Shown: positions 1,948 to 31,021 of the stretch, piece after piece
How positions within the stretch are numbered: the first letter of the stretch is position 1
Layout: each line of letters starts with the position of its first letter
Assembly (NCBI GenBank): GCA_002897635.1
Contig: BDTD01000011.1
Coordinates: 76,436 to 140,435, forward strand
DNA from: a bacterium BMS3Abin11
GTDB taxonomy: Bacteria > Pseudomonadota > Gammaproteobacteria > BMS3Bbin11
Length of the DNA: 64,000 nt
Reading direction: 5' to 3'
The notes under the pieces: model-generated
Seen by the model: the letters and a program-made list of their open reading frames with translations, nothing else
Database searches by the model: none
Told to the model about the DNA's origin: nothing
Translations under genes and position numbers: made by a program

Positions 1948-2352
1948 ATGAAACTACTGATACGTAACCTGGCCCGCACAACTACGGAAGTAGAGCTTCG
2001 GAGAATGTTCGAAGCCCACGGACCGGTACAGTCCTGCAGCCTGGTAATGGACAGGCAAACTGGCAAGTCCAAGGGCTTTGCTTTTATCGAAATGCCCAGA
2101 CCGGGCGATGCCAAAGCTGCTGTAAAAACTCTCAATGGCAAGGATGTCGCCGGTAATGTAATCCGTGTTAAAAGGGCCACTACGAAAAAGTCCACAGCAG
2201 AAAAAGTTTTCCCTGGCAGGACAGAATCTAAAAAAACCGAAACAGGGAATAGTGTGGTAAAGACAGATGAACCAGAAAAACCCGAACCACAAAAGCCCAA
2301 ACTGAAAAAAAATACTGCCGTAAACTATAACATCTGGTCGTCAAATGACTAA
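1948..2352 (+). CDS. RRM-type RNA-binding protein
   Basis: RNP-2 LIRNLA and RNP-1 KGFAFIEM motifs, with a Lys/Pro-rich tail. The stop codon TAA lies inside the MITE terminal motif. Confidence 0.8.
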   Translation: MKLLIRNLARTTTEVELRRMFEAHGPVQSCSLVMDRQTGKSKGFAFIEMPRPGDAKAAVKTLNGKDVAGNVIRVKRATTKKSTAEKVFPGRTESKKTETGNSVVKTDEPEKPEPQKPKLKKNTAVNYNIWSSND

Positions 2353-2565
2353 GGAACCTCTGATGTGTCTGGACGAAGTAGATTGCGATCTAAAATATTC
2401 AGGTTTGAGGCGTAAATCGCAAGGCCGCTCAATGACATCCTGTCATCGCGGCACTTGTACATCCATGTACTTCGTAATAGCTAGCTATTTTGAAGGTTTG
2501 CAACGAAAAAACTGGATATTTTAGGCGTAAGATACGAGTTCATGAATTGATCAGAGGTTCCCTAA
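2351..2565. mobile_element. MITE-like element with terminal inverted repeats AAGGAACCTCTGAT...ATCAGAGGTTCC (about 215 bp)
   Basis: Termini are inverted copies of each other. A second, shorter copy sits at 18078..18241 in opposite orientation and lacks about 50 internal bp. Confidence 0.7.
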
Positions 2566-2798
2566 ATCAGGAGGTGGCGATCCACTGCATGGCGTGACTC
2601 TGGAGATGATAGTCACCCGATTGCAGGGAAAGTACGGCTGGGAAGAACTGGGTCGTCGCATCAATATAAAATATTTTACTAACGATCCAGACATAAACTC
2701 CAGCCTGAACCCCGTATCTCATTCTTGTATGAATCTTGACATAAAGCCCGACCTTGTACTAGATTTACACCGTTAATCGAACGTACACTGAGGATATA

Positions 2799-3023
2799 AT
2801 GAACGTATTGATAATTGCAACCAAAGGCTGTCGCCATTGCAATAACCTGGCTACGGAATTGAATGAACTAGGGATTGAGCACAAACTGGTTTATGCTGAA
2901 TCTGAGCCAGAGTTGGTAGAAAAATATAGTATTCGTCATTCACCTAATTTGATCGTAGATGATGAAGTTAAATTTCGACGGCAGCCTACAGAACAGGAAT
3001 TACGAGAGTGTCTGAATTTATAA
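2799..3023 (+). CDS. glutaredoxin-like thioredoxin-fold protein
   Basis: 74 aa with a CRHC (CxxC) motif near the N-terminus, size and layout typical of NrdH/glutaredoxin-like proteins. Confidence 0.6.
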   Translation: MNVLIIATKGCRHCNNLATELNELGIEHKLVYAESEPELVEKYSIRHSPNLIVDDEVKFRRQPTEQELRECLNL

Positions 3024-3317
3024 TCTCCTCAGAAATATTTTGAACAATTTAGGTGTGGCACTACCCCACTAAGCCATCGTTCGGGCGAATAAATCAGAAC
3101 TGAATTACTGATTCTCGCAAAAGAGGTCAAAAAGAACTTCCGGAGTGTAACCACATGTCATTCCAAAAAAATATCTCGATCAAGACATTTATAGCGACTA
3201 CTTTCCCTGCCACCATACGGGTAAACTCCTGAATACAGAATTATCCATCGGTTCAGCCAGGGTTCAGCCGCCCTGTTATTTAATAGCCCTCAAGCTAACT
3301 AAAACGAGGGCTTAGCC

Positions 3318-3644
3318 ATGAAAGTTACAATACAACCTATTGATAGAACTCACCGACTGATTAAGACCAGTGTTTTGCTGATGGTCACAATCCCATTACT
3401 CGTTGTTGGCACGGCTTACGCAAGTCATCGCCATCATGATTACAATTCAGGGACATCGATAACTTTCGGTTATATTTTTTACCCGAAAGCACCTCTGTAC
3501 CATAAGGCCTATAGGCACCCGCGTCATTATCGATATTACAACTCTCACTACCGGGGTCATTACGGCCGCTACAATCCCTGGAGAAATGAGCATGCGTACA
3601 AATATCGTAGAAATCATTACAACGGCTATCGTGATGATGATTAG
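3318..3644 (+). CDS. hypothetical secreted His/Tyr/Arg-rich protein
   Basis: N-terminal hydrophobic signal/TM segment, followed by a low-complexity region extremely rich in H, Y, R and N (HRHHDY...RHPRHYRYYNSHYRGHYGRY). Confidence 0.4.
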   Translation: MKVTIQPIDRTHRLIKTSVLLMVTIPLLVVGTAYASHRHHDYNSGTSITFGYIFYPKAPLYHKAYRHPRHYRYYNSHYRGHYGRYNPWRNEHAYKYRRNHYNGYRDDD

Positions 3645-3785
3645 AGAAATGGTGGCCTATATGTTTTCGTCATTATCAGAAAGAGTATAAAAGTCCATAA
3701 TAGCGCTAATAATGTATATTATCTTCGCTTAAATATAACGCCTATTATATTTAGCTATTATAAATAATATAGATAAGAATCGCTA

Positions 3786-4247
3786 TTAATTGATGAGTTC
3801 GGGCCTAACCATCCACTGCAACTGCCAAACTCCTTCATCCGTGGATTCCAGGAAAACTATACTTCCTGGTGTGTAGGATACGATGACCACATCGGAAGCT
3901 CCTGTCACCAGAAAACTAACCAGCTTCGACATGAATGGCAGGTGGCCAACAACCAGAATATCTTCGTCCCAGTTCATCAACCGATTTGCAAAACCCTCAA
4001 CCGAGTCATTCGGGTTAATACCACTGATCGCCTCAACTGGAAACTCTCCCGTTATTATTGCTGTAAATATCTCAGCCGTCTGTTGCGCTCGCGTCTTGCC
4101 ACTATGCATGACTCGCGAAACTGTCATATGGCCTGCAAGAAAAGCTGCCAACCGTTCCACCTCTGCATGCCCCACATTACTCAAGGGCCGGTCAGCATCA
4201 ATATCCTTAGTCAGTGCTTCACCATGTTGCACAAGATAGAGTTTCAT
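3786..4247 (-). CDS. sixA: phosphohistidine phosphatase SixA
   Basis: LYLVQHGEA N-terminal histidine-phosphatase motif, about 153 aa, matching the SixA family. Confidence 0.8.
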   Translation of the reverse strand: MKLYLVQHGEALTKDIDADRPLSNVGHAEVERLAAFLAGHMTVSRVMHSGKTRAQQTAEIFTAIITGEFPVEAISGINPNDSVEGFANRLMNWDEDILVVGHLPFMSKLVSFLVTGASDVVIVSYTPGSIVFLESTDEGVWQLQWMVRPELIN

Positions 4248-4491
4248 TCGCGATCCATCCCCCTGATATAAAGAAAGCAGTTATATTTCAGTTTAGCATT
4301 AATTACGGCATCACGAGCGAGGCATGGCAAGCTTAAAAATACAGGGATCGCACGGTTACTCAATAGTATGTGCAGGGGTGGTACTCATACCAATAAATAG
4401 AAGCTCCCATAAAACATAATACGTAATGCGTAAAACATCCCCTCCCCCCCTTGACTAATTAGGACAGTTGTATTATTTTATACTTGATGAT

Positions 4492-4507
4492 TAGGACATG
4501 CGTCCTA
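4492..4507. promoter_or_regulatory. perfect 16 bp palindrome TAGGACATGCGTCCTA, candidate TetR-family operator in the nemA-like promoter region
   Basis: It lies about 50 bp upstream of the OYE gene start, downstream of TTGACT/TATACT-like -35/-10 elements. An additional half-site ATTAGGACA lies 25 bp upstream. Confidence 0.45.
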
Positions 4508-4555
4508 TTTTAATACGGAATATTAAAATAAATACCTGTCAAACTGGAGAAAATA

Positions 4556-5647
4556 ATGAGCAATAACCTGTTTAGTTCAATCACAGTGGGTGATCTCACA
4601 TTACCCAACCGGATGGTCATGGCACCGATGACGCGTAATCGTGCCAACCAGGACAACGCTCCGCACAGTCTGAATGTAAAATACTACCAGCAGCGCGCCA
4701 ACGCCGGTTTAATCATTACCGAAGGCTCGCAGGTCTCGATGGAGGGTGTGGGTTACCCCGGTACGCCAGGCATCTATAGCGATGTGCAAGTGGCCGGCTG
4801 GCGCGAAATTACCGATGCCGTACACGCCAAAGGTGGGCATATCTTTATACAGCTCTGGTATTGTGGACGTATCTCCCATCCAGATTTATTACCCGACAAC
4901 CAGACACCAGTCGCACCTTCCGCAATAAAACCGGAAGGTGATGCCGTTACCTTTGAAGGGATGAAACCTTTTATCACACCACGGGCACTCGAAACCGATG
5001 AGATTGCGGGCATTGTGGCACAGTACAAACATGCGGCGGAAATGGCCATAAAGGCGGGTTTTGATGGTGTTGAAGTGCATGGCGCAAATGGATATCTCAT
5101 CGATCAGTTCCTGCGAGATGGATCCAATCATCGCACTGACCGGTATGGTGGCAGCGTTGAAAACCGTATGCGCTTTCTCAATGAGGTACTCGATGCGGTA
5201 TGTGAAGTATGGCCTGACCAGCGCGTTGGGCTAAGACTGACACCGGAAAATAGTTTTAACAGCATGTCAGACTCCGATCCACAGACGCACTTTGCCTATT
5301 TTATTACACAGCTTAATTCACGCAAGCTGGCATATTTGCATATACTGGAAGGCGATATGATAAGCAAACAACGGCATGTCAACTACCGCAGCCTGCGTGA
5401 TAGCTTTGATGGTATTTACATAGCCAATAATGCATATGACAAAACGCGTGCTGAAGAAGGTATACGCAACGGAGATTGTGACATGGTTGCTTTCGGCATT
5501 CCTTTTCTGGCGAACCCAGATCTGGTATACCGTTATCAAAACGACCTGGCATTAAATGAAGCGGATCCGGACAGCTTTTATGGTGGTGATGAACACGGCT
5601 ACACAGACTACCCCTTTGCCGAGCACGTTAGCGCCGAATCGGCGTGA
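4556..5647 (+). CDS. nemA: NADH:flavin oxidoreductase, Old Yellow Enzyme family (N-ethylmaleimide reductase-like)
   Basis: OYE hallmarks are present: PLTRxR-like MAPMTRNRA, HGANGYLIDQF, RxDxYGGS. Length is 363 aa. Confidence 0.85.
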   Translation: MSNNLFSSITVGDLTLPNRMVMAPMTRNRANQDNAPHSLNVKYYQQRANAGLIITEGSQVSMEGVGYPGTPGIYSDVQVAGWREITDAVHAKGGHIFIQLWYCGRISHPDLLPDNQTPVAPSAIKPEGDAVTFEGMKPFITPRALETDEIAGIVAQYKHAAEMAIKAGFDGVEVHGANGYLIDQFLRDGSNHRTDRYGGSVENRMRFLNEVLDAVCEVWPDQRVGLRLTPENSFNSMSDSDPQTHFAYFITQLNSRKLAYLHILEGDMISKQRHVNYRSLRDSFDGIYIANNAYDKTRAEEGIRNGDCDMVAFGIPFLANPDLVYRYQNDLALNEADPDSFYGGDEHGYTDYPFAEHVSAESA

Positions 5648-5674
5648 CTACGTAAAAAAAAACAGGAACAGAAC

Positions 5675-6268
5675 ATGGGGAACAAAGGTGAAGCATTACG
5701 ACAACGGATTGTCGCATCTGCCGACCAGCTGTTTTACCAACAAGGATATGAAAACACTTCATTCAGCGACATAGCCGAAGACGTGGGGATCTCGCGTGGT
5801 AATTTCTATTATCACTTTAAAAGTAAAGATGAAATTTTAAACGCGGTTATAGACACCCGGCTCACCGACATCGAGCAGATGCTAGATGAATGGAGTAAAA
5901 AGTATACTGATCCCAGACAACGTATTATTATGTACATTGATATACTTACCAACCATCAGGACAATATTAAAAATCACGGCTGCCCCTTAGGCAGCCTGTG
6001 TACCGAGCTGGCAAAACAAAGTCACGTCATGTTGCAGGACGCGAACAAAATGTTTGCCATACAGCGTGACTGGTTAACAGTACAACTGAAAGAACTCGGC
6101 CTGGGTAAAAACGCCAAACAGGTTGCAATGCACTTATTGGCCCGCTCACAGGGCATCGCCACCATCACCAATGCCTTTGAAGATCAAGACTTTCTGCGTC
6201 AGGATGTAAAACGTTTAAAACAATGGCTAGATGAACAGATCCAGGGCCAGAACAAAAGTGGGAATTGA
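5675..6268 (+). CDS. TetR/AcrR family transcriptional regulator
   Basis: N-terminal HTH with GYENTSFSDIAEDVGISRGNFYYHFKSKDEIL. Confidence 0.85.
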   Translation: MGNKGEALRQRIVASADQLFYQQGYENTSFSDIAEDVGISRGNFYYHFKSKDEILNAVIDTRLTDIEQMLDEWSKKYTDPRQRIIMYIDILTNHQDNIKNHGCPLGSLCTELAKQSHVMLQDANKMFAIQRDWLTVQLKELGLGKNAKQVAMHLLARSQGIATITNAFEDQDFLRQDVKRLKQWLDEQIQGQNKSGN

Positions 6269-6345
6269 CCCTGTTATTCTCTCACAAAACGTCCTGGGTA
6301 CGGCAAAAACCTGAGACACTTTACCTGGAAACAGTTCGGTCTGAT

Positions 6346-6494
6346 AATAAACTACCCCGCAGCAAGCTGACGGGGTATTAAATGTAGGTGCGAATTCATT
6401 CGCACAGCGATGCCAATGTTTATGCACATTGTGCGAATGAATTCGCACCTACAGTTTTCGTGGCAAGCCACGGGGAATTATGCCCATAGGGATT
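6346..6494. mobile_element. 149 bp palindromic MITE-like repeat (copy A)
   Basis: Identical to the copy at 23081..23229. Contains a perfect 23 bp inverted repeat, GTAGGTGCGAATTCATTCGCACA / TGTGCGAATGAATTCGCACCTAC. Confidence 0.8.
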
Positions 6495-6540
6495 AACAGT
6501 ATTATCAGCGAAAAATGAAGGCACGAGCAGATACAAGCTG

Positions 6541-6700
6541 GTATATTATGGATCCGAACCTGAGTTGGTAGAAAAATAGAGGTGCCCTAATAGTATTCGT
6601 CATTTGCCTAATTAGGTCATAGATGATGAAGTTAATTTTTAGCGGCAGTCAACAGAACAAGAATTACGAAAGTGTTTGAATTTATAATACCCCACTGGCA
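6541..6700 (+). pseudogene. degenerate segmental duplicate of the 3' end of the glutaredoxin-like gene and its downstream flank
   Basis: About 80% identity to 2895..3070, with indels including a 12 bp insertion GAGGTGCCCTAA. There is no intact ORF. Confidence 0.6.
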
Positions 6701-6733
6701 GCCACATAACTCACAATAAAGTGCAAATCTGAT

Positions 6734-7489
6734 ATGTCAAATGTCAGTCCTGAACCCGTTACTCGTACCCACATGAATAAAATTGTAGTTACTGGATTTG
6801 TACTCATTGTCCTTTCGGTTGTGGCCGCCATGATAGCGCCATTAGGGAGCCGGATAGGTTATTGGGATTATACTGCTGCAGTAATGATTCTTGAATGGGC
6901 AGCCTATACAGGTACTGCATCTGCTTTGATTTGCCTGATTGGCACTTTTGTTGTGCGACCCAGAAATAGCCGCCTGGGATTTTTCTTAACCCTGCTCGGC
7001 TTAGCGATCATTATTCCGACACTTCTGTATTTGATGTACTGGAAGGATGCAGAAGAGAATGCACCACCCATACAGGACATCACCACGAATACAGAAAACC
7101 CACCCGAGTTCTGGGCTGCGCCAAATGCGCGTGTCTATGGGGGAGCCGCAGTAGCCACCTACCAGAAGGAAGCATACCCATATATTCAGCCATTACTGTT
7201 ACCAGTGCCTCCAGACAAAGCATTTGATTATGCAATAGAAGTGGTTCGGCAAAAAGGCTGGGATTTATTGGATGCAAATCGTAAGGATATGCATATTGAA
7301 GCAACTGAATCCACATTCTGGTTTGGTTTTAGTGATGATGTAGCCATAAACATCACTGCAACAGATTCAGGTGGCAGTCGGGTTGATATGCGTTCGACAT
7401 CACGCTTTGGTAGTGGTGGAGATGGCGGGACCAACGCCAGGCGGATTCGATCATTTTTTGCTACTTTAAAACCCAAAGCTGATAAATAA
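6734..7489 (+). CDS. DUF1499 domain-containing membrane protein
   Basis: Three predicted TM helices, then a C-terminal region with FWFGFSDDV...RSTSRFGSGGDGGTNARRI typical of DUF1499. Confidence 0.65.
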   Translation: MSNVSPEPVTRTHMNKIVVTGFVLIVLSVVAAMIAPLGSRIGYWDYTAAVMILEWAAYTGTASALICLIGTFVVRPRNSRLGFFLTLLGLAIIIPTLLYLMYWKDAEENAPPIQDITTNTENPPEFWAAPNARVYGGAAVATYQKEAYPYIQPLLLPVPPDKAFDYAIEVVRQKGWDLLDANRKDMHIEATESTFWFGFSDDVAINITATDSGGSRVDMRSTSRFGSGGDGGTNARRIRSFFATLKPKADK

Positions 7490-7494
7490 TATTC

Positions 7495-7788
7495 TTATCT
7501 CATCGACCTTTTATCTAGCAAATCGGTTGCCATCTCATAGTAGGCGATGGCCTCGTCAATAAGGTGTCTGGATTTTATGGTGTCTTTGTTTAGATTCTCG
7601 CCCGTTGTAGCATCCAGGACATTGACGCGTTGATTCGGTGATAATTCCACTACCACGTTATCTTGCATATACCCGACAGTCAGGTAATTAGCCATCAATG
7701 TGCGCTGGTGACGCCCCTGTTCATTTAATATATCTTCACCAAAAAAATATGAGTCGTAGTTGAAATTTAGCATCCCAAACAGGGTCAA
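7495..7788 (-). CDS. hypothetical protein
   Basis: 97 aa ORF with no recognisable motif. Confidence 0.35.
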   Translation of the reverse strand: MTLFGMLNFNYDSYFFGEDILNEQGRHQRTLMANYLTVGYMQDNVVVELSPNQRVNVLDATTGENLNKDTIKSRHLIDEAIAYYEMATDLLDKRSMR

Positions 7789-8088
7789 ATGGGTAATGAA
7801 ATTCTTTTATAAAAGGATTCGCTGCCATCAGGGACAGGCCTTATATTTTACATTCAAGTGATTCTACTGCTCGATGGACCGCCGCAAACTCACATCAAAG
7901 TGCAAATCAGATATGTCATATTTAAGACCCTGTTACTTTGTAGGTATATTTTTTTTACTTTTTTAATGAAGATATTTGATTCGTTGAGGTATGGGTATGA
8001 TGGGAGTTCATTAAAATATTTAATGTTGATAAATAGGATTGAACATCCCACTTGAAATTTCAACTTTTTCTTATGAATCTGCAATCAC

Positions 8089-10531: not shown

Positions 10532-10689
10532 TCAGACGATCAAGTTTCTGTTACTTTCAGATGTATTTTTTTGATGAAACGTAGCTTCATGTTTGATTTG
10601 TTGAGGTATGGACACAGGAAGAGTACGTCATAATTAATCAGAGGCTCCTTAATGTTGTAAAACAGGATTGCCCCCCCCTTTAATTATAA

Positions 10690-11580: not shown

Positions 11581-11685
11581 TGCATCTATACCTGTCTACC
11601 ATACAATATATCCCCTAAAGAATCTTTCATAACATACCTCCATTGTTCCTCTGAAGGGCTGCCCACAATGGATAACTTTAAGGAA

Positions 11686-11790
11686 CCTCTGATTAAATAT
11701 AAAACCTATGTCTTAAGCACAGGTCAAGGGGTGACAGATCGATTAGCTGGCGGTACTAATTTTCTGGATTAAATCGTTCAGGTATGCATG
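11686..11790. repeat. ~95 bp direct repeat, copy A (5' region of the DUF547 gene)
   Basis: About 90% identical to 12778..12882. Contains the hairpin CCTRTGTCTTAARCACAGG and is preceded by a TTAAGGAACCTCTGAT-like motif. Confidence 0.7.
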
Positions 11791-12594: not shown

Positions 12595-12777
12595 ATTCTG
12601 GTTAATACGTCATTGCGTATATAGACTCCATGGTATTCGCAAGAACGATTTTAGTCTATTTTAAGATAAACAGGCACACACGTATATTCGGCCTCTCGTT
12701 ATGGTTGAGAATCACTGACCCTAAATTTGAGCGTACCTTCATGCCCCAGCGAGAAAATTGATAACTAATCAGAGGCT

Positions 12778-12882
12778 CTTTAAATTTAAAACCTGTGTCT
12801 TAAACACAGGTCAAGGGGTAACAGACCGATTAGCTAGCGGTACTAATTTTCTGGATTAAATCAGTCAGGTAAATACATCCTG
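12778..12882. repeat. ~95 bp direct repeat, copy B (5' region of the methyltransferase gene)
   Basis: See copy A. Same orientation, about 180 bp upstream of the minus-strand MTase start. Confidence 0.7.
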
Positions 12883-15442: not shown

Positions 15443-15654
15443 ATTGCCCTACCCTGCATAACAAATAATAATTCAACACATAATATAAACCTGTCTGACC
15501 CGCTGTTTTTCTACCTTGATTTTTATGATGACCCGTTTATTTGGTATGTTCCCGGGCATTCTTTACCTGACTAATTATATTGCCTCATAACAGGTTCCAA
15601 AGAAAATCTTAAAGAGGCCGGTGATCGATAAAAATATAATTGATCAGAGGTTCC

Positions 15655-16191
15655 TTAGTTGTCACCGACCTCTTTTAATTGCTCATAGAGATCCGCATTG
15701 ATAGCCTTGAGTCCAGCCCGAGCGCAGGCTTCATCCAATTTACCGCCGGGTGCCCCACCTACGCCAATTCCTCCCACAACCTCACCAGAAAGTTTTACAG
15801 GTAACCCACCCCCCAGAATCAAAATGGAGTCATTCATATCCCTAAGCCCCTGTACCTCCGGAACGCTGCTGATGAGCTCAGCAAAAAATTGCGTAGGTGC
15901 CCTCATACTTGCAGCGGTGTAGGCCTTGCGCCGACTGCTGTCAACGGTATGTACCCCGGCCCCGTCATCCCGGATCTGGTACAACAGGACGCCTGATCTA
16001 TCAACGACAGCAACGCTTACCTTGTAACCATCAAGCCGGCATTGCGCCATAGCGGCGTCAGCAGACTGGCTGGCCAACTTCAGAGGTAAAACAGTTTGTT
16101 TGGGCAAGCCCCCTGCATATACGATATTAGACATTACAGCGAATACAATCAACATTCTGAAGAGATCTCTATGATGTTTTCTATAGTGCAT
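15655..16191 (-). CDS. GlcG/HbpS-like heme-binding protein (DUF336), secreted
   Basis: GGLPVKLSGEVVGGIGVGGAPGGKLDEACARAGL C-terminal DUF336 signature, plus an N-terminal signal peptide. Confidence 0.75.
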   Translation of the reverse strand: MHYRKHHRDLFRMLIVFAVMSNIVYAGGLPKQTVLPLKLASQSADAAMAQCRLDGYKVSVAVVDRSGVLLYQIRDDGAGVHTVDSSRRKAYTAASMRAPTQFFAELISSVPEVQGLRDMNDSILILGGGLPVKLSGEVVGGIGVGGAPGGKLDEACARAGLKAINADLYEQLKEVGDN

Positions 16192-17192: not shown

Positions 17193-17290
17193 TTATTTAA
17201 TCAGTGCCTGTTCCAGCTTTGGTAACTCTTGTTCAACAACGCTCCATATTACATCTAAATCACCACCAAGAAAATCGTGAACAAGCTTGA
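17193..17290 (-). pseudogene. remnant of a HepT/DUF86 (HEPN) toxin C-terminus
   Basis: Translation ...DFLGGDLDVIWSVVEQELPKLEQALIK* resembles the conserved HepT C-terminal tail. The reading frame is closed by a TGA immediately upstream. Confidence 0.3.
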
Positions 17291-17560: not shown

Positions 17561-18079
17561 ATGGGCCTACTAAGCTACCTATACGTAAGAAAAACAGCCC
17601 GTCTTTCCCAATCAACCACATCAGGTATTGGTAAAGATTTGTATGACGACTGGGCTGCCATGACTGAAGAACAAGGCGGTTATTACTCTGCCCTGACCAT
17701 GTCGAAAAATCTGCATGGTGTCGGCCTTACTTTTCGCTGCAAGGCCAGGGATCAGCAGAAAATAATCTGTCTTTCAATTTCGGAAAAAACGGATAAATAC
17801 TTTTTCGAGCCTGGTAAAAGATACAAATTACGGCTTCAATTTAAAAACTCGATAGTCCTCTATGCATATATGCATGCATATCAGCAAAGACACGCGACCC
17901 TTATTGATATCTCGGATGACTTCATTCATAACATTATTGATAGCGAGAACCTGAAGCTTCAATATCTCGGTGATAACGAAAAAAAAATTACGATGAAATT
18001 CTCACTCAAAGGTTCAGCCCTCGCAATTAACGCAACTATTGCCCGGGCTAATGAACATAAAGAAGAGATAAATCCTTAA
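17561..18079 (+). CDS. hypothetical protein (orphan, in a low-GC region)
   Basis: 172 aa with no recognisable domain. Local GC is much lower than in the flanks. The stop TAA falls inside the MITE terminal motif. Confidence 0.45.
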   Translation: MGLLSYLYVRKTARLSQSTTSGIGKDLYDDWAAMTEEQGGYYSALTMSKNLHGVGLTFRCKARDQQKIICLSISEKTDKYFFEPGKRYKLRLQFKNSIVLYAYMHAYQQRHATLIDISDDFIHNIIDSENLKLQYLGDNEKKITMKFSLKGSALAINATIARANEHKEEINP

Positions 18080-18241
18080 GGAACCTCTGATCAATTCGTG
18101 AACTCGTATCTCACGCCTAAAATATCCAGTTTTTTCGTTGCAAACCTTCGCAATAGCTAGCTATTACGTGCGATTTACGCCTTAAACCTGGATATTTTAG
18201 TCGCAATCTACTTCGTCCAGAATTGATCAGAGGTTCCTTAA
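18078..18241. mobile_element. MITE-like element, short copy with TIR TTAAGGAACCTCTGATCAATTC
   Basis: Reverse complement aligns with 2351..2565 except for a deletion of about 50 internal bp. The terminal inverted repeats are perfect. Confidence 0.75.
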
Positions 18242-18368
18242 TTTTTCGTCGTGGCGATGTGCATGGATGTAGAAAAAACCAATGGTAACCCCATTGTTTT
18301 GTGAGCCCAATTTATCCTATACAATGCCCGCTCACTATTCACATTGCAATCAAACTGTTTGAGGCATT

Positions 18369-20147
18369 ATGACAATTGACCAGATACTGCTGTTTGGATT
18401 GCTGTTTTTCGTTTTTGTATTCCTGGTCTGGGGGCGTTGGCGCTACGATCTCGTTGCCTTTGTCGCTCTGATTGCTGCACTGATTCTCGGGATCATACCT
18501 AAAGAAGAAGCCTTTTCCGGGTTTGGCCATCCCGCCACTATCATCGTTGCGCTGGTACTGATTATCAGCAAAGGCCTGTCGAACTCCGGTGCCATTGAAT
18601 TGATCGCCAAACAGGTCAGCCGTTTCGGCGTCACGCTGCAAACACATATCGCCGCGATGGCGGGCATTGCGGCTGCTCTGTCGGCGGTGATGAACAATGT
18701 CGCGGCACTGGCCATGTTGATGCCGGTAGACATCCAGGCGGCGATTAAGGCGAAGCGCAGTCCATCGCTGACACTGATGCCCTTATCCTTCGCCTCGATA
18801 CTCGGTGGCATGATCACCCTGATTGGCACGCCGCCGAACATCATCATTTCTGAGTTTCGGCAGAGTTCGACAGGTGCGAGTTTTAGCATGTTCGATTTCG
18901 CGCCGGTTGGACTGGTCTCTGCCACGGTCGGCGTATTATTTGTGACGCTGGTGGGTTGGCGACTGTTGCCCAAAGACCGTGTCAGTTACAATTCTGCGCA
19001 GGAACTGCTTGACGCCAGCGGTTACATTGCAGAACTGCATGTGCCTGAAGGATCACCTGCCATCAACAAGCGGGTGCGGGATCTGGATGACACTGCCAAT
19101 GAAAATGACGTTGCTATCATCGGTCTGGTACGGCGCGGCAAACGCCAGCCGGGTCAGGCAAGACTTGTAGAAATCCGTAAAGGCGATATTCTGGTGGTCG
19201 ACGCAACACCGGAAGATATGGACAAGTTCGTCGGCGCGCTTAAGCTTGATTATTCAAGCAAGGGTAAAGACAGTAGCCCACTAAGTGACGAAGATATGTC
19301 GCTGTGGGAGGTGGTGGTGCCAGAAGGCGCAAGGATAGAGGGCCGTACAGCACAATCTCTGCAACTGCAATACCGGCATGGTGTGACACTGCTCGGTGTA
19401 TCGCGTCAGGGTAAACAATTCCGTGAACGCGTACGCCATCTTGAAATCAGGGAAGGTGACGTGCTGCTGTTATACGGTGCCAGCGACATGCTGGCAGAGA
19501 TCAGCTATTGGCTAGGTACCCTGCCGCTGGCAGGTCGAAACACTGACCTGATTAAACGCCACAAGGCATGGCTGGCCGTTGGCCTGTTTGCCACCGCGAT
19601 CGCAACAGCCAGCTTTGGATTGCTCTACCTGCCGATTGCACTGGCAGCGGTGGTTGCCAGTTACGTTATGTTCAACATCATTCCAGCACGGCATGTTTAT
19701 GACTCAATCGAGTGGCCGGTCATCGTGCTGCTTGGTTCTATGATCCCGATTGGTGTTGCGCTGGAATCAAGCGGTGGTACGGCACTGATCGCCGATGCCA
19801 TTACCACACTGTCGGACGGTTACTCACCGGTGGTGGTGCTGACTCTGCTGATGGTCGTCACGATGACTCTTTCTGATGTCATGAACAACACAGCAACAGC
19901 CGTTATCGCCGCCCCGATTGCGGTCGACATTGCTAACCGCCTCGGTGTAAACGCCGATCCGTTTCTAATGACCGTCGCCGTGGCCGCCTCCTGTGCCTTC
20001 CTGACACCCATCGGACATAAGAACAATACCCTGATTATGGGCCCGGGAGGTTACCGCTTCGGTGACTACTGGCGCATGGGACTGCCGCTGGAAATACTGA
20101 TTATCGTGGTATCGATTCCGATGATTCTTTGGGTTTGGCCTCTTTAA
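18369..20147 (+). CDS. SLC13/DASS-family anion permease with two central TrkA-C regulatory domains
   Basis: N- and C-terminal transporter halves with repeated motifs (MPVDI..., TPIGHKNNTLIMGPGGY), and two TrkA_C-like segments (about residues 215-385). Confidence 0.8.
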   Translation: MTIDQILLFGLLFFVFVFLVWGRWRYDLVAFVALIAALILGIIPKEEAFSGFGHPATIIVALVLIISKGLSNSGAIELIAKQVSRFGVTLQTHIAAMAGIAAALSAVMNNVAALAMLMPVDIQAAIKAKRSPSLTLMPLSFASILGGMITLIGTPPNIIISEFRQSSTGASFSMFDFAPVGLVSATVGVLFVTLVGWRLLPKDRVSYNSAQELLDASGYIAELHVPEGSPAINKRVRDLDDTANENDVAIIGLVRRGKRQPGQARLVEIRKGDILVVDATPEDMDKFVGALKLDYSSKGKDSSPLSDEDMSLWEVVVPEGARIEGRTAQSLQLQYRHGVTLLGVSRQGKQFRERVRHLEIREGDVLLLYGASDMLAEISYWLGTLPLAGRNTDLIKRHKAWLAVGLFATAIATASFGLLYLPIALAAVVASYVMFNIIPARHVYDSIEWPVIVLLGSMIPIGVALESSGGTALIADAITTLSDGYSPVVVLTLLMVVTMTLSDVMNNTATAVIAAPIAVDIANRLGVNADPFLMTVAVAASCAFLTPIGHKNNTLIMGPGGYRFGDYWRMGLPLEILIIVVSIPMILWVWPL

Positions 20148-20150
20148 AAA

Positions 20151-21391: not shown

Positions 21392-21952
21392 ATGAGCATG
21401 ACACCTGCAGCATTCAGAGAGCAATTCCCCGGGATTGCCGGGCACTGTGATCCTGGTGGACTGGAAGACCTGCTGGCCGCGATGGAAACGCGAAATGTCC
21501 ATGCCGGAGATGCCGTGACAACTGATGGTGAATATTGCGATTCACTTTTTCTTGTTATTGACGGAAAGCTTGTTTCCCAGATTACCAGTGAGAAAGAAAC
21601 CATTCGTCTTGGTGTACATAAAAAAGGGGACTGCTTTGGTGAAGTTAATATTCTTGATCCCGGACCGTCTACAAGTTCTGTAATCGCCACTGGTGACTGT
21701 GCACTCCTTGTTCTGACCCATGATGCTTTCCACAAGCTGGACAGACTGCACCCGCAGATGACAGGGAATATTTTACGCATGCTATCCTCAACCATGATTG
21801 AGCGTTGTCGCGTTGCTGACAAATTACTGTTCAGCAAATACGCCTATATAGAGGGGATTAAAGACAATGATTCCAGAAAACACCATGGACTCATTGATTG
21901 GGGACGCGATCTTTTACAAAAACTGCATGGCCACAAAAAGATACAGCTATGA
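21392..21952 (+). CDS. cyclic nucleotide-binding domain protein
   Basis: cNMP-binding beta-roll with FGEVNILD and the following helix. The stop overlaps the next ATG (ATGA). Confidence 0.65.
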   Translation: MSMTPAAFREQFPGIAGHCDPGGLEDLLAAMETRNVHAGDAVTTDGEYCDSLFLVIDGKLVSQITSEKETIRLGVHKKGDCFGEVNILDPGPSTSSVIATGDCALLVLTHDAFHKLDRLHPQMTGNILRMLSSTMIERCRVADKLLFSKYAYIEGIKDNDSRKHHGLIDWGRDLLQKLHGHKKIQL

Positions 21953-22419
21953 ATATTGATGAATATCTTCAATCTGTTCCTTTATTTAGCGAAATGACCA
22001 ATGATGAGCTGAAAATATTAGGCCAATCGATGGTGGTTAAAGACTATCCCGATAAATATCTGTTTATATCTGAAGAAGGTAGTGCTGATACCTTCTATGT
22101 AATTCTCGAGGGTGAAATTGAAATCACTCACGAAAAAGATACAGAGCGTGGACTGCAACGTGTTTCAACATTGGGAGCGGGTAGTATGATAGGCCTGCAT
22201 AGTTTGATAGCCCACCATCGCCCTATTGTGTCCTGTCATGCCAAAGGAAAAGTAAAAGCCGCCTTTTTACCGAGTTCGGCATTTAATTTGCTTTTTCAAT
22301 ACAATACCCGCCTGCCGCATCATTTTCAGATGATTGTTGCCAAACAACTGGCAGCCAACTACCGTAATATAGTAAATGAACTGAAAGAAATGATGCTTAC
22401 AGATGATGCTGCCGAGTAG
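21949..22419 (+). CDS. cyclic nucleotide-binding domain protein (second, translationally coupled)
   Basis: cNMP-binding fold (FYVILEGEIEI...GAGSMIGLHSL). Start taken at MNIDEY rather than the upstream M in the track. Confidence 0.65.
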   Translation: MNIDEYLQSVPLFSEMTNDELKILGQSMVVKDYPDKYLFISEEGSADTFYVILEGEIEITHEKDTERGLQRVSTLGAGSMIGLHSLIAHHRPIVSCHAKGKVKAAFLPSSAFNLLFQYNTRLPHHFQMIVAKQLAANYRNIVNELKEMMLTDDAAE

Positions 22420-22462
22420 AGATTTGTAACTGGTTTTCATCTCCTTATGGGTATTCTTGCCG

Positions 22463-22499
22463 CCAAAAAAAAGCCCCATAAACTCATGGGGCTTTTTCG
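22463..22499. terminator. bidirectional rho-independent terminator
   Basis: GCCCCAT-AAACTC-ATGGGGC hairpin flanked by an A-tract and a T-tract. It lies between convergent cNMP-binding and cspA genes. Confidence 0.75.
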
Positions 22500-22520
22500 T
22501 ACTTCGAGTGAACTAAGTGT

Positions 22521-22721
22521 TCAGGTCTGTACGTTTACTGCTGTTGGGCCTTTTGCTCCATCTTCAACGTCGAAGGTAACTTCCTGACCTTCTGCGAGTG
22601 TACGGAAGCCATCGCTAGCGATAGCAGAAAAATGGACGAAAACGTCCTTAGTGCCATCTGATGGAGTGATAAAGCCGAAGCCTTTGGATTCGTTAAACCA
22701 TTTAACGGTTCCTGTTGCCAT
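22521..22721 (-). CDS. cspA: cold-shock protein, CspA family
   Basis: [18 protein letters not shown]...VHFSAI with RNP motifs, 66 aa. Confidence 0.9.
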
Positions 22722-22961
22722 GATAAATACCTCAATAAATAAAAAAATATAGTGTGTTACAAGATCTTACGAGGTAATCAACAGGAGAGTTTGGATCGTA
22801 CTTCTGACAAAAACCAGGGAGAGTATGTAGCGTGCGCGAGTATACCCTGTTTTTTATAAAGAAAAAAAGACTAAATTCAGATAAAAGATGAAAAATCATT
22901 AAAGATTCCCTTCTGCTAATGCTCTTGTATCCTTAGTCCTTTGTCCTTAGTCTTCTTTCAA

Positions 22962-23355
22962 GCCTTTTCCCCAATGGTGTGAATAACTTCTACATTGAAG
23001 TAGATGCCTTCTTCATCAGCCAGTTCATTGACCTCATCCAGGCCCGTGCCGGTTGCGATATCGAGAATATTTTCATCACCAATAAACTACCCCGCAGCAA
23101 GCTGACGGGGTATTAAATGTAGGTGCGAATTCATTCGCACAGCGATGCCAATGTTTATGCACATTGTGCGAATGAATTCGCACCTACAGTTTTCGTGGCA
23201 AGCCACGGGGAATTATGCCCATAGGGATTTAAATTAAGCAAAGCAGGCAGATGAGAGGCTGCGTTCTCAAAGAATCGCAACGAACCCGTGCCATATTGTT
23301 CGCACACTGTGTTAAACACCTGGCGAATAAATTCTTTACGGTTTTTGTCTTCCAT
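22962..23355 (-). pseudogene. small gene disrupted by insertion of the 149 bp MITE
   Basis: N-terminal part MEDKNRKEFIRQVFNTVCEQYGTGSLRFFENAASHL reads straight into the repeat. A C-terminal part ...DENILDIATGTGLDEVNELADEEGIYFNVEVIHTIGEKA* resumes directly after it. Confidence 0.5.
23081..23229. mobile_element. 149 bp palindromic MITE-like repeat (copy B, inserted in a coding region)
   Basis: Matches 6346..6494 over its full length, with the same 23 bp internal inverted repeat. Confidence 0.8.
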
Positions 23356-23424
23356 GGTGATTCTTTCTTCTGGTGAGTAATTATTATACGCAATTATTTT
23401 GGCCCCTTTGTAGAAGCGCCGTTC

Positions 23425-24069
23425 CTACATTTTCACATACACCTGCGTCAACCAGATCAAATTGGTGTTCTGGTATGCCTTGTCGAAACCCGCTTCAGTA
23501 ACCCACTTCTCAATCAGTTCCGGGTTATGCACATAAGAGCGAAAATCAGAACGTGCGATTTTCAGTATCAGGGCCATAAGTTCCATCACCACCCGGATAT
23601 ACCAGCGGTTTCTCGGGTAGGTCAGGGCATAAACACGGCGCGTTTTGTTTAACGAGGCATGCACCAGGCCAACAGCATCGGGATAACAGCAAACCACCTT
23701 ATCAAGTATGGTGATATCAGCAGCAGGCAGTGACTCGTTGATTTCCATGAAGTCACCTTCGACATATTCCGTTCTGTCGGAAAGCTGGCGCTCTTCTGCC
23801 CAATGTCGCGCCTCTATGATCATCTTCGATGCCAGATCAACACCAATGGCCGATGATGCCCCTTGCTCCAGCAGGGTCTGGTGTAGATACCCTACGCCAC
23901 TACCAATCTCAAGAATTGTGGCATCCTGGTATCCAGCCTGTTCCAATCCCTCCATCAACTGCTTCTGTGATGACTCAAACCCCTTTTTTTCAAAACGCTT
24001 GCGATAGCGTCCTGCAAAAAAGGAGAAGAAACGGTTAGCTGAATTTGAATGCGGACAACAACAACTCAT
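23425..24069 (-). CDS. class I SAM-dependent methyltransferase
   Basis: Motif I ILEIGSGVG, acidic motif II VGVDLA, motif III LKPGG-equivalent region. The start codon abuts a solo AATTGATCAGAGGTTCC motif. Confidence 0.75.
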   Translation of the reverse strand: MSCCCPHSNSANRFFSFFAGRYRKRFEKKGFESSQKQLMEGLEQAGYQDATILEIGSGVGYLHQTLLEQGASSAIGVDLASKMIIEARHWAEERQLSDRTEYVEGDFMEINESLPAADITILDKVVCCYPDAVGLVHASLNKTRRVYALTYPRNRWYIRVVMELMALILKIARSDFRSYVHNPELIEKWVTEAGFDKAYQNTNLIWLTQVYVKM

Positions 24070-24400
24070 AATTGATCAGAGGTTCCCTAGATTATTCTAT
24101 TGTTGATTATGGTACCAGATGAGACAGCGCCAATGTGAATGGGTTCATTACATGTTTGCTGTATAGTTTAAGAAAAATCTGATTAATTTTTAACTAGAGA
24201 GGTCGCAGGATTTCTTTTTTTGAGAACCAGCTCCTTTCATGTACCAGCGTGCAAACAAATCTTTCACGCTGGCTTTTACACTTTTTCATCCTCTGTGTTC
24301 TTCATATCCCCTGTGGTGAATATTTTTTTGTTTGATACGTTATAATGCGCCACCCTTTTGACGGGCTTCCGTCAATCATTCTCTTTAAGGAACCTCTCTC

Positions 24401-27283
24401 GTGTACGATTTTATTCCCGGGCAACGCTGCATCAGCAATGCTGAGCTGGAAATGGGACTGGGTACAGTAATGGCCGTTGACGAACGCACGGTCACTATCG
24501 TGTTTGTGGCCACTGGCGACACCCGTACTTACTCCCGTCAGACAGCACCATTGTCTCGTGTGGCGTTTACTATTGGTGATTTAATCCGCCGGCATGATGG
24601 ATCCAAAATAATGGTAACAACCACTCGCGAAGAACAGGGGCTGATTACCTATTGTGGAACTGATGAGGAAGGTAACAGCATCGAGCTGCCCGAGTCTGAA
24701 CTGGATAACTTTATTCAGCTCAATCGTCCGACTGAGCGCCTGTTTAATAACCAGATTGATCCTGATAAATGGTTTGAACTGCGCTATCTGACCCTGCAAC
24801 AGCAAAATCGCCTTGCCCACACCGATCTGTTTGGTCTAACCGGCTGTCGAACCAGCCTGATTCCACATCAGTTATACATTGCACATGAAGTCGCCAACCG
24901 CTATGCCCCGCGTGTACTGCTGGCCGATGAGGTGGGGCTGGGAAAAACCATCGAGGCGGGTTTGATCCTGCATCATCAGCTACTGACCGGGCGTGCCCAA
25001 CGTATATTGATCGTGGTACCGGAGTCGCTGGTGTATCAATGGCTGGTGGAGATGCTGCGTCGCTTCAATCTGCACTTCCGCATTTTCGATGAAGAACGCT
25101 GCTATGTGGCAACCGATGAGGAAATGCCGGAAAACCTGTTTCATAGTGAGCAGCTGGCCCTGTGCAGCGTCGAATTTCTGATGCAGAACCCGGACATACA
25201 TGAACAGGCCGTGGCAGGCGAATGGGATCTGCTGGTTGTTGATGAAGCCCATCACCTGGCCTGGTCACCGGATCATGCCAGCGATGAATACCTTATGATC
25301 GAACAGCTTGCCACCAGGACGCGCGGCGTGCTGCTATTGACGGCAACGCCCGAGCAACTGGGCAAAGAGAGTCATTTTGCCCGCCTGCGCCTGCTTGATC
25401 CGGATCGCTTTCCTGATTTTGAGCATTTTCTTGAAGAAGAAAAAAACTACAGGCCTCTGGCCCGGACTATTAAAGACCTGATCAATGACAAAGCATTAAC
25501 TGAGGCTGACCAGGAATTAATACACAGCACTTTCAACGAAGGCGATAACCAGTCGTTGCTTGCACAAATTGAAGCCGCTGGCAAAGAAGACCAGGCAGGT
25601 AGCAAGGCCCGCACTGAACTGGTCGAACACCTGCTCGACCGCCATGGCACCGGCCGTGTGCTGTACCGGAATACGCGCTCAGCGATAAAAGGCTTTCCGA
25701 AAAGGATCGTCCGTCCTGCGCCACTGCCACTGCCGGAAATCTATCGAAATAATGATCATGACGATGCTAATGATAACAATCATTTCGCAGCACGACTTTC
25801 ACCAGAACTGAGTCTTATTAACAGCAGCGGGAAACCGGACTGGACGCAGCAGGATCCTCGCATAGACTGGCTGATCAAGGTACTGGAAAAACTGCAACCT
25901 GCGAGAGTGATTATGATTGCTGCCAGCAGAGATACGGTACTTGATATAGCTCAATATCTGAAAAGGTATTCCGGACTCCATGCTGCCGTATTCCACGAAG
26001 GACTTAGCATCGTCGAGCGTGACCGGGCGGCGGCCTACTTTGCTGATGGGGAAGCCGGCAGCCAGGTACTGTTGTGCTCTGAGATCGGCAGCGAGGGCAG
26101 AAACTTCCAGTTCGCCCATCACCTGATACTGTTTGATCTGCCGCTAAACCCGGATCTGCTGGAACAACGTATAGGCCGGCTAGACCGCATCGGCCAGACC
26201 CGCACTATTTACATCCATGTCCCCTATCTACAGGACTCTGCACAATCAGTGATGTTCCACTGGTATCACGAAAGCCTCAATGCCTTTGAGCAGACCTGCC
26301 CGGCCGGCCATTCTGTTTTTGTTCAGGTAGAAGATGCGTTAATAAATGCCTTGCGTCACCCTGCTAGCGACACCACGGATTTAATAAATAATACAAAAAC
26401 CTTATACAGGGAACTGGCGGCTAACCTGCACGCAGGCCGTGACCGGCTACTTGAATACAATTCATGCCGCCAAAATCTGGCAGAAGAGTTAAAACAACGT
26501 GCCGAACAGGCAGACCAGAATGACCCGCTTGCAGGATACATGAGCCGGGTCTTCGACAGCCTGAACATAGATTCAGAAATTCATAGTGAAAACTGTCTGA
26601 TCATTCGCCCCACAGATGAGATGGTCAACCAGTTGCCCGGCCTGCCGGATGACGGCATGACCATCACATTTAACAGGCAGACTGCACTGAGTTTTGAGGA
26701 TGCACAATATCTAACCTGGGAGCACCCCCTGGTCCGTACGGCGATGGAGATGATCACCAGCAGCGAAATGGGCAACACCGCCATGACGGCCATCAACAAA
26801 ACGCACATTAAATCCGGCAGTACATTGCTGGAGTGTATCTACAGCCTGGAAGTGCCGCCAATAAGCAATTTGCAGAGCGATCGCTACCTGCCGCCAACCA
26901 GTATCCGGGTGCTGATTGACGAACAGGGTAGAGATCACCAGCAGGATCTGACGCATTCATTCATCGAGGAACACAGGGTACATGTGCCTGCAAAAATGGC
27001 TAACAAGATCATTCACGCTAAGGAAAAAACGTTACGTCATTTGTTTAGCAACTGTGAAGATGTTGCAAAAAAACAGACACCGGTAATTCTAAAACAGGCC
27101 CATACGCAATCCAGCGAAATACTGACAAAGGAGATTAATCGCCTCAGGGCTCTGCGTCAGATCAATCCGAATATCCGTGATGAAGAAATCGAGTTCTTTG
27201 AACAGCAACTGGCGGCTTTGAATGAGGTGCTGGATGCAGCTAGTTTAAGGCTGGATTCGTTAAGGGTACTTATTTCGATATAA
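24401..27283 (+). CDS. rapA: RNA polymerase-associated SNF2/Swi2 ATPase RapA (HepA)
   Basis: Helicase motif I DEVGLGKTIEAG and motif II DEAHHL, and a helicase-C region. About 960 aa, with an N-terminus like E. coli RapA. Apparent GTG start follows a TTAAGGAACCTCTC motif. Confidence 0.9.
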   Translation: MYDFIPGQRCISNAELEMGLGTVMAVDERTVTIVFVATGDTRTYSRQTAPLSRVAFTIGDLIRRHDGSKIMVTTTREEQGLITYCGTDEEGNSIELPESELDNFIQLNRPTERLFNNQIDPDKWFELRYLTLQQQNRLAHTDLFGLTGCRTSLIPHQLYIAHEVANRYAPRVLLADEVGLGKTIEAGLILHHQLLTGRAQRILIVVPESLVYQWLVEMLRRFNLHFRIFDEERCYVATDEEMPENLFHSEQLALCSVEFLMQNPDIHEQAVAGEWDLLVVDEAHHLAWSPDHASDEYLMIEQLATRTRGVLLLTATPEQLGKESHFARLRLLDPDRFPDFEHFLEEEKNYRPLARTIKDLINDKALTEADQELIHSTFNEGDNQSLLAQIEAAGKEDQAGSKARTELVEHLLDRHGTGRVLYRNTRSAIKGFPKRIVRPAPLPLPEIYRNNDHDDANDNNHFAARLSPELSLINSSGKPDWTQQDPRIDWLIKVLEKLQPARVIMIAASRDTVLDIAQYLKRYSGLHAAVFHEGLSIVERDRAAAYFADGEAGSQVLLCSEIGSEGRNFQFAHHLILFDLPLNPDLLEQRIGRLDRIGQTRTIYIHVPYLQDSAQSVMFHWYHESLNAFEQTCPAGHSVFVQVEDALINALRHPASDTTDLINNTKTLYRELAANLHAGRDRLLEYNSCRQNLAEELKQRAEQADQNDPLAGYMSRVFDSLNIDSEIHSENCLIIRPTDEMVNQLPGLPDDGMTITFNRQTALSFEDAQYLTWEHPLVRTAMEMITSSEMGNTAMTAINKTHIKSGSTLLECIYSLEVPPISNLQSDRYLPPTSIRVLIDEQGRDHQQDLTHSFIEEHRVHVPAKMANKIIHAKEKTLRHLFSNCEDVAKKQTPVILKQAHTQSSEILTKEINRLRALRQINPNIRDEEIEFFEQQLAALNEVLDAASLRLDSLRVLISI

Positions 27284-31015: not shown

Positions 31016-31021
31016 GATATT

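Follow-up and report, generated by a model that had tools for sequence, protein, structure and literature searches.

The window analysed here is a stretch of 64,000 nucleotides from contig BDTD01000011.1 of bacterium BMS3Abin11, in which a short motif with the 12-nt core GGAACCTCTGAT recurs beside genes, among them those for an RRM protein, an HbpS/GlcG-like protein and a methyltransferase. The original prediction, made from the sequence alone, had assigned this motif to a family of repetitive extragenic palindromes (REP) or miniature inverted-repeat transposable elements (MITE) which supplies stop codons and Shine-Dalgarno sequences at gene boundaries. The results presented below make it very probable that the motif is the end of a MITE family of IS5 type with the target YTAR, accompanied by relics of such elements. 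The proposal of a mobile MITE was correct; the family is not REP-like, given its terminal inverted repeats, its 4-bp YTAR duplications and its relatives in the IS5 group.

A search of the window with the 21-mer TTAAGGAACCTCTGATCAATT gave seven matches at up to three mismatches, compared to 0.01 expected from shuffled sequences. With at most one mismatch, the core GGAACCTCTGAT was found on the plus strand at 2353, 11682, 18080, 44478 and 44493 and on the minus strand at 2550, 10637, 15643, 18226 and 24075; a copy with two mismatches at 12768 (minus strand) brings the family to 11 members, which agrees with the predicted minimum of 11. One more match with at most one mismatch (48962) looks like a chance occurrence, the usual flank being absent. 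The features are:

2349..2565, unstranded: MITE copy 1 including duplications (217 nt), with terminal inverted repeats and CTAA at 2349-2352 and 2562-2565
10632..10652, minus strand: relic GGAGCCTCTGATTAATT (10632-10648) with TTAA (10649-10652); the site is unoccupied in the related contig L141
11678..11696, plus strand: relic TTAA-GGAACCTCTGA-TTAA with 11 nt of the end; a single TTAA in L141 (15-nt indel)
12765..12783, minus strand: relic TTAA-AGAGCCTCTGA-TTAG, present in both strains; L141/L142 have GGAGGCTCTGA
15638..15658, minus strand: relic CTAA-GGAACCTCTGATCAATT, whose CTAA contains the stop of the HbpS/GlcG-like gene 15655-16191
18076..18241, unstranded: MITE copy 2 including duplications (166 nt), with TTAA at 18076-18079 and 18238-18241
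24067..24090, minus strand: relic CTAG-GGAACCTCTGATCAATT, abutting the methyltransferase ATG 24067-24069
44474..44507, plus strand: tandem relic TTAT-GGAGCCTCTGA-TTAT-GGAGCCTCTGA-TTAA with a period of 15
24385..24397, plus strand: look-alike outside the family, the rapA leader in its native form, TTAAGGAACCTCT; AAGGAA stands 8 nt upstream of GTG 24401

The motif thus forms, as predicted, the terminal inverted repeats of two MITE copies (2349-2565 and 18076-18241). Among the proposed solo or tandem copies, those at 10632, 11678, 12765, 15638, 24067 and 44474 belong to the family, whereas the "copy" upstream of rapA at 24388 is a match of 13 nt only.

The element proper begins at GGAACCTCTGA; the preceding TTAA, CTAA or CTAG is host DNA and represents a 4-bp target-site duplication. 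In copy 1, the element (2353-2561) comprises 209 nt, that is the 159-nt type plus an internal insert of about 51 nt, and the left CTAA contains the stop codon of the RRM gene (2350-2352). In copy 2, the element (18080-18237) comprises 158 nt, and the left TTAA contains the stop of the open reading frame (ORF) 17561-18079. The two copies are 93.6% identical in inverted relative orientation. The arms of the hairpin element are complementary across 58 nt, and the computed RNA folds have energies of -85.9 kcal/mol for copy 1 (z -8.4 versus shuffles) and -62 kcal/mol for copy 2 (z -10.1). Coding capacity is absent: no ORF of at least 60 aa starts inside either element, and the ORFs ending at 2352 and 18079 extend only into the duplicated target, not into the element. 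Neither window copy was found to contain a promoter or terminator consensus. In the 159-nt consensus one end contains GATC (TGATCAATT) and the other end is TGATTAATT (examples in the window: 18088-18096, 2545-2553); copy 2 has GATC in both ends.

Target sites, mobility and IS5-type relatives

When TARGGAACCTCTGATCAATT was scanned against a collection of species-representative genomes, at least 120 loci were found. The lineages were counted manually from the record titles, as labelled, and they include metagenome-assembled genomes (MAGs). Among the matches listed, 95 of 120 have gammaproteobacterial labels, many of which come from vents, sediments or groups of sulfur oxidisers. The remaining 25 of those listed are unspecified Proteobacteria/Pseudomonadota (8), Burkholderiales, Thiobacillus, Hydrogenophilaceae or Orrella (4), Hyphomicrobiales/Aestuariivirga (4), Acidobacteriota (4), Verrucomicrobia (4, from one assembly) and Myxococcota (1). 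The contigs that carry two of the Acidobacteriota matches measure 0.48 and 2.2 Mb. Many matches lie about 110-140 nt from contig ends, which a repeat that breaks assemblies would lead one to expect. The Pseudohongiella chromosomes OZ243108 and OZ245938 are among the complete genomes with the family.

Statistics of pairs and flanks were computed from 121 sequences, namely the listed loci (at least 120) and the window. These contain 69 inverted pairs. Their lengths (22-395 nt) peak sharply at 159 nt, with a further cluster at 261-263 nt; the two subfamilies are referred to as the 159-nt and the 262-nt type (both lengths approximate), and the end of the latter reads GGAACCTCTGAT[C/T]AATTATGCC. 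The 4-nt flanks are identical in 35 of the 69 pairs, compared to 0.20 expected (p=1e-8). A YTAR flank is present at 174 of 211 ends, and the flank logo gives Y 95%, T 91%, A 91% and R 95%, position -4 being free, that is unconstrained by the search pattern. This duplication has 4 bp and not the 2 bp that had been anticipated for full copies. The insertion sequence (IS) IS5 duplicates 5'-YTAR-3' on insertion (PMC5009759).

The comparison of filled and empty sites demonstrates insertion directly. At the site of copy 1, contig L135, whose RRM protein is 96% identical, is empty and reads ...TCAAATGA-CTAA-ATCAGGAAGTGG..., to which the window adds 209 nt and a second CTAA; contig L136 (RRM protein 74% identical) has CTAG at the same empty site. 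Near 3050 the situation is reversed: the window is empty with one CTAA, and L143, with about 98% DNA identity, is filled by 158 nt plus CTAA. Similarly, at 17259 the window has a single TTAG, where L141, which is the same contig as L143, has an element end plus TTAG. These polymorphisms between strains show that the family has moved since the strains diverged and that its insertions duplicate 4 bp. For copy 2 (18076-18079), no relative with an empty site was found, and look-ups with the exact proteins (RRM, ORF 17561-18079, HbpS-like) gave contigs 99.8-100% identical to the window, all of them with the same insertions or broken there. The CTAA target between the RRM and VF530 genes has been reused: it carries the 209-nt copy in the window, an end of the 262-nt type in L143 and nothing in L135.

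Complete insertion sequences whose left end equals the MITE end were identified in other genomes, and one IS5-family element resides in the window:

L113, 2788-3956: full-length IS of 1169 bp with TTAA/TTAA duplication, left end GGAACCTCTGATCAATTC, right end GGAAGGTCTGATCAATTG and a 318-aa transposase
L099, 5075-6289: full-length IS of 1215 bp with CTAA/CTAA duplication, a left end equal to the motif over 17 nt and a 323-aa transposase
36109..37362, minus strand: resident IS5-family IS of the window with ends GGGCACCTCTATTTAGT / GGGCATCTCTATTTAGT and ATAA on both sides

The L099 transposase reaches 364.5 bits with the IS5-family model NF033581 (cut-off 140) and 127 bits with Pfam DDE_Tnp_1, additionally contains DUF772, and is 60-67% identical to plasmid-borne enzymes of the IS5/ISPssy type; the L113 transposase is 51% identical to it. 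A second copy of the L113 transposase (same tblastn score) adjoins the motif in L054, which has the same 1169-bp element, and L063 contains a partial copy of the parent IS. The host labels of L113, L054 and L099 are an Acidobacteriota long-read MAG and an Orrella isolate; none of the four, L063 included, is from the source lineage. The transposase of the resident IS scores 242 bits with NF033581 (cut-off 140), is 25% identical to that of L099 and is the sole IS5-type transposase of the window; it is a possible helper for the short elements.

In the preferred explanation, GGAACCTCTGAT[C/T]AATT... is the terminal inverted repeat of non-autonomous miniature elements that are palindromic throughout and have a modal length of 159 nt. 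These derive from IS5-group elements with DDE transposases and are presumably moved in trans by such enzymes. They integrate into a 4-bp YTAR target, which is thereby duplicated. Every YTAR includes TAA or TAG; when an element enters a stop codon, the stop is therefore restored on the upstream side and the protein stays the same. Such insertions are tolerated and persist. The solo copies of 11-23 nt are remnants after deletion of most of an inserted element, and this deletion probably joins inner bases of the end (TTAA, TAATT, ATG) to identical bases of the duplicated target or its flank.

Searches for an earlier description gave nothing comparable. A blastn search of a plasmid database with the 166-nt copy had no match. 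In Rfam, the motif copies had no match at the gathering threshold, and the region around 18076 (17900-18400) gave chance-level hits only (E 0.17-0.38), so that a known RNA family could be ruled out on both the gathering and the E-value threshold. The 12-mer GGAACCTCTGAT occurred in the searchable literature only in unrelated work on mouse, dog and human, and not as a bacterial element. As far as could be searched, the repeat is a previously undescribed, typical IS5-group-derived MITE family with deletion relics.

Gene ends, leaders and deletion relics

The TAA beside the motif ends three ORFs, namely 1948-2352 (RRM_1), 17561-18079 (no Pfam hit) and 15655-16191 on the minus strand (HbpS/GlcG-like). 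The claim that the motif terminates three genes is accurate to this extent, but the TAA belongs to the target duplication and not to the element. All eight RRM homologues compared (69-96% identity) end in the same C-terminus NIWSSND, and the empty site already has an in-frame stop, CTAA in L135 and CTAG (TAG) in L136; therefore, the element did not supply the RRM stop. Whether C-termini differ at insertions had been posed as a check; the orthologous RRM ends in relatives lacking the insertion proved identical. At 18076-18079, removing the element and one TTAA likewise leaves TAA in frame.

Among the evaluable YTAR-flanked ends, the flank coincides with the stop of an ORF of at least 100 codons in 25 of 158 cases (15.8%). 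The corresponding value for control YTAR sites outside long ORFs is 400 of 2337 (17.1%; Fisher p=0.74), and for all YTAR sites it is 5.0%. Since 15.8% does not exceed 17.1%, the association with stops is as large as YTAR targeting and exclusion from coding DNA would predict. This is ordinary mobile-DNA behaviour and not a purpose-built gene-boundary signal. Accordingly, copies do sit at gene ends, as the predicted co-option into, or preferential insertion at, translational boundaries would have it, but there is no excess at stops, and co-option holds only in the weak form of a methyltransferase leader made from a relic and a VF530 start that was cut off.

The latter case concerns the gene downstream of the RRM gene. 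In L135 and L136, the start ATG of a VF530-family gene (PF09905) overlaps the RRM stop (ATGACTAA). The insertion at 2349 parts this ATG from the body of the gene in the window; the next in-frame start is GTG 2594 or ATG 2606, at least 12 residues are lost, and the remaining ORF (2594-2776) encodes 56-60 aa, compared to 72-89 aa in relatives. The window and a 97% relative share the ending ...YEQLKEVGDN of the HbpS-like protein; six others end with ...YEKAE. At the 3' end of its gene (15655-15700, minus strand), the DNA diverges directly after TATGAG, and the downstream gene differs too. The C-terminus was altered at a junction adjoining the relic, and its new tail, which bears a weak likeness to a degenerate element end, may be derived from the element. 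Directly after this relic, about 59-64 nt (15578-15636) of the window are absent in L141/L142 and include a second, degenerate copy GGAACCTGTTAT (15587-15598).

At the two start codons, the original prediction had placed an AAGGAA core 7-9 nt upstream of both the methyltransferase ATG and the rapA GTG. The methyltransferase start at 24069 is confirmed by homologues of 214-216 aa at 100% coverage. The window leader reads ...CTAG-GGAACCTCTGATCAATT-ATG, and its G-rich bases are in fact AGGGAA at a distance of 13 nt. The relatives L137/L138 have no relic and read ...TTCCAGGGAG(T/C)C(A)TC-ATG with AGGGAG 6-7 nt before the ATG. This comparison indicates that the relic, whose 17-20 nt make up the whole leader ahead of the ATG, replaced the native ribosome-binding region and moved the G-rich bases to 13 nt. 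The ATG itself may be the short homology where the deletion ended, because the end of the 262-nt subfamily reads GGAACCTCTGAT[C/T]AATTATGCC. Upstream of rapA, AAGGAA does lie 8 nt before the GTG; it is not a family copy, however, since the match covers 13 nt only and element-free relatives conserve the leader (L138 TAAGGAATCTCTCTCGTG, L137 CAGGAATCCTTCTCGTG), L138 having no motif copy upstream of its methyltransferase gene. The rapA Shine-Dalgarno sequence is native. At neither gene is there a core that lies 5-10 nt before the start and depends on the motif.

The origin of the solo copies was studied by comparing the window with L141/L142, which are 96.7-99.6% identical over aligned blocks of about 12 kb. 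There are few indels in this stretch, and three of them involve the motif. At 10632-10652, L141 reads ACA-TTAA-A-TAATTATG-ACG and the window reads ACA-TTAA-GGAGCCTCTGAT-TAATTATG-ACG; the 10637 allele corresponds exactly to an insertion at TTAA, followed by a deletion that runs from TAATT(ATG) of the element end to the identical bases of the flank. For 11678-11696, the element end itself offers an explanation: it often reads GGAACCTCTGA-TTAA-TTC (28 cases), and a deletion from this internal TTAA to the duplicated TTAA therefore yields the observed product. The relic at 12765 occupies the same place in a paralogous 92-nt repeat as the relic at 11678 does, in opposite orientation. These repeats (11693-11784 and 12780-12871) are 91% identical, lie downstream of two consecutive minus-strand genes and have the relic at the same TTAA. 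Each contains a terminator-like hairpin on the minus strand (11703-11725 and 12790-12812, respectively), and the 11678 relic is located directly beyond the former on that strand. The idea that the repeats are promoters (TTGACC...TATATT) was dropped when the scan gave these hairpins instead. The relic at 15638 reads GGAACCTCTGATTAATTATGCCA in L141/L142, where 23 nt are identical to the end of the 262-nt subfamily. The solo copies are hence what deletion left of full elements, and replication slippage helped by the hairpin could have produced them. The same comparison of strains revealed a 421-nt segment (7599-8019) which is absent from L141/L143.

For the tandem relic at 44474, three paralogous segments with PEP-CTERM proteins were aligned in search of an empty site; they are too diverged to show one. 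These segments of about 4.6 kb make up the region around 33400-45000, which also contains an IS110-family RNA-guided transposase gene (42035-43084), a trypsin-like peptidase gene, a repeat with a 24-nt period (39369-39632) and repeats of 216-260 nt (33416-33674, 38633-38890, 44784-44999).

Alternatively, the 11-nt units GGARCCTCTGA found between targets might have been inserted themselves or be footprints of transposase excision, which we consider unlikely. The allele at 11678-11696 would suit this explanation, as it consists of exactly 11 nt and a second TTAA in comparison to the one TTAA of L141; so would the paralogous repeat, whose same TTAA carries the 11-mer in opposite orientation, and the tandem TTAT-11mer-TTAT-11mer-TTAA at 44474-44507. 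However, a single transposon end should not be able to undergo two-ended DDE integration, as judged from the known mechanism, and the TTAA that follows GGAACCTCTGA in 28 cases lets a deletion give the exact product. Moreover, the 10637 allele needs the 8-nt direct repeat TAATTATG and not a clean duplication, and other relics retain 17-23 nt of the end. A metagenome scan for intermediate alleles of the 11678 and 12780 sites yielded only one contig, L143, by which the comparison was extended to 2349 and 3050. Autonomous "nano-elements" or excision footprints were set aside, as insertion plus direct-repeat deletion reproduces the 10637 and 11682 alleles.

Elsewhere in the window, Rfam detects group II intron domains D1-D4 at 34767-34940 (minus strand, 139.5 bits) and a full-length cspA thermoregulator at 22466-22829 (minus strand, 117 bits). 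The region 56000-62000 has a G+C content of 58-60%, compared to about 45% elsewhere in the window, and may be an acquired region.

Weighing of explanations and comparison with known systems

Copies of 159 nt have a common consensus along their full length, and in 20 copies from different genomes the hairpin comprises 49 pairs with 94.6% of cells paired. Double-sided changes affect 18 of the 49 pairs, compared to 9.8 +/- 1.5 in shuffles (0 of 500 shuffles reach 18), and the covariation score is 0.216 versus 0.078 for shuffles and at most 0.064 when the partners are slid. A manual count gave 32 G-U cells, 20 of them in one invariant column, and 33 A-C cells. As G-U is no commoner than A-C, the constraint looks strand-symmetric, and this symmetry seems to point to a DNA-level palindrome rather than to a strand-specific RNA; repair within the palindrome could yield the covariation pattern without selection. 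That the element is more than a passive parasite, through hairpin-dependent targeting of gene ends or terminators by an IS5-group transposase or as a host-selected RNA or DNA signal at gene ends, is improbable in our judgement; it is suggested by compensatory substitutions that keep the hairpin across many orders and by repeated independent use of the same 4-bp targets.

Even less probable is a gene-boundary cassette under selection, in which the motif is kept for its stop and its Shine-Dalgarno-like AAGGA or as a regulatory hairpin. Three ORFs do terminate in the adjacent TAA, a relic is now the leader of the methyltransferase gene, and, in 20 copies from many genomes, pairing in the hairpin is preserved by compensatory changes. 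In addition, target plus element end, TAAGGAACCTCTGATC, resembles TAAGGAGGTGATC, the extended Shine-Dalgarno sequence given by the 3' end of 16S rRNA. Yet the stops are already present in the empty sites and show no excess over intergenic YTAR sites, the rapA leader is native, and the relic shifted the ribosome-binding site of the methyltransferase away (13 nt versus 6-7 nt in relatives). Furthermore, the insertion at 2349 damaged the overlapping VF530 start, the equal counts of G-U and A-C (32 versus 33) favour a DNA-level palindrome, and the elements contain no promoter or terminator consensus. The supply of stop codons and Shine-Dalgarno sequences is hence refuted for the stops and for rapA; what remains of it is the incidental remodelling of one leader and one overlapping start.

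Mobilisation of REP-type repeats by a REP-associated tyrosine transposase (RAYT) of the Y1 type is the least probable explanation and can practically be dismissed. The proposed gene exists: ORF 37697-38467 encodes a 256-aa protein with a Y1_Tnp Pfam score of 37.9 bits and a score of 71.9 bits with NF047646 (REP-associated tyrosine transposase), close to but below the cut-off of 80. However, it is not a plausible mobiliser of the motif. The nearest copy is at 44478, and there is none less than 6 kb away from the gene. Lacking GTAG, forming no hairpin on its own and being accompanied by a 4-bp duplication, the motif is not a single GTAG hairpin of 20-40 nt. HUH/Y1 transposition is not known to make terminal inverted repeats with 4-bp target duplications, whereas the family has both, with clean empty sites. 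Finally, the window contains a separate family of classical REP form, GTAGGTGCGAATTCATTCGCAC, with GTAG and hairpin, in inverted pairs at 6384-6452, 23119-23187 and 31022-31089. Its 156-nt unit is 98% identical between two sites (6346-6501 and 23081-23236), with a third site at 31021-31090, and the copy at 6351-6491 is polymorphic, being absent from L141. It is this GTAG-hairpin family, rather than the GGAACCTCTGAT motif, that fits naturally with the RAYT protein.

Several observations weigh against the IS5-type MITE explanation, which we nevertheless prefer. In the source lineage, no complete IS whose ends match exactly was found, and the IS5-family element of the window has different ends and a transposase only 25% identical to that of L099. 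Half of the inverted pairs lack identical flanks, which mutation or recombination between copies could explain. The palindrome is kept by compensatory changes over its whole length, a feature not anticipated from simple decay of a deletion derivative. The history of the relic at 24070-24090 is deduced from relatives at 83-84% protein identity, without an empty site in a close strain, and the stop-codon control relied on crude ORF-based "intergenic" calls on mixed MAG contigs instead of annotated genomes.

IS5-type MITEs account, without a new mechanism, for a prominent repeat of bacterium BMS3Abin11/Bbin11, an uncultured gammaproteobacterium from a hydrothermal setting: a preference for the 4-bp target YTAR alone makes a mobile element look as if designed for stop codons. 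The family is widespread, with the exact 20-mer at no fewer than 120 loci, and as it breaks MAG assemblies at its copies, knowing it helps both annotation and assembly. The polymorphism at strain level provides markers and cases of gene-end remodelling, namely the lost VF530 start, the replaced methyltransferase leader and the HbpS-like C-terminus changed beside a relic.

Among known systems, the IS5 group is most similar. It shares the ends beginning with GGAA and the 4-bp YTAR duplication (PMC5009759), and its 1.17-1.2-kb members have a 17-nt end in common with the motif and transposases of 318-323 aa, 60-67% identical to the IS5/ISPssy type. The window copies differ in being 158-209 nt long, without coding capacity and palindromic over their whole length, and in forming subfamilies of about 159 and 262 nt. 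REP sequences and bacterial interspersed mosaic elements (BIMEs) with RAYT are alike in being short intergenic repeats, and the window has a RAYT-like gene; a REP, however, consists of one 20-40-nt hairpin with GTAG at its 5' end and makes no target duplication, none of which applies to the motif. Described bacterial MITEs such as MITEAba12 (PMC6382973) and that of Porphyromonas gingivalis (PMC4596501) likewise are IS-derived and non-autonomous, have inverted ends and duplications and are spread across related taxa; their sequences and parent IS are different from those of the motif family.

ERIC/IRU of enterobacteria and the Correia elements of Neisseria are many-copy imperfect palindromes of 100-160 nt between genes, often right after stops, and their insertions vary from strain to strain. 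TA is part of the target they duplicate, so that stops are frequent landing sites, and effects on mRNA processing or promoters are documented. The family described here resembles them as a many-copy intergenic palindrome near stops with strain polymorphism and a TA-containing target. It differs by its unrelated ends, by a 4-bp duplication in place of their 2-bp TA, and by window copies in which no promoter or terminator consensus occurs.

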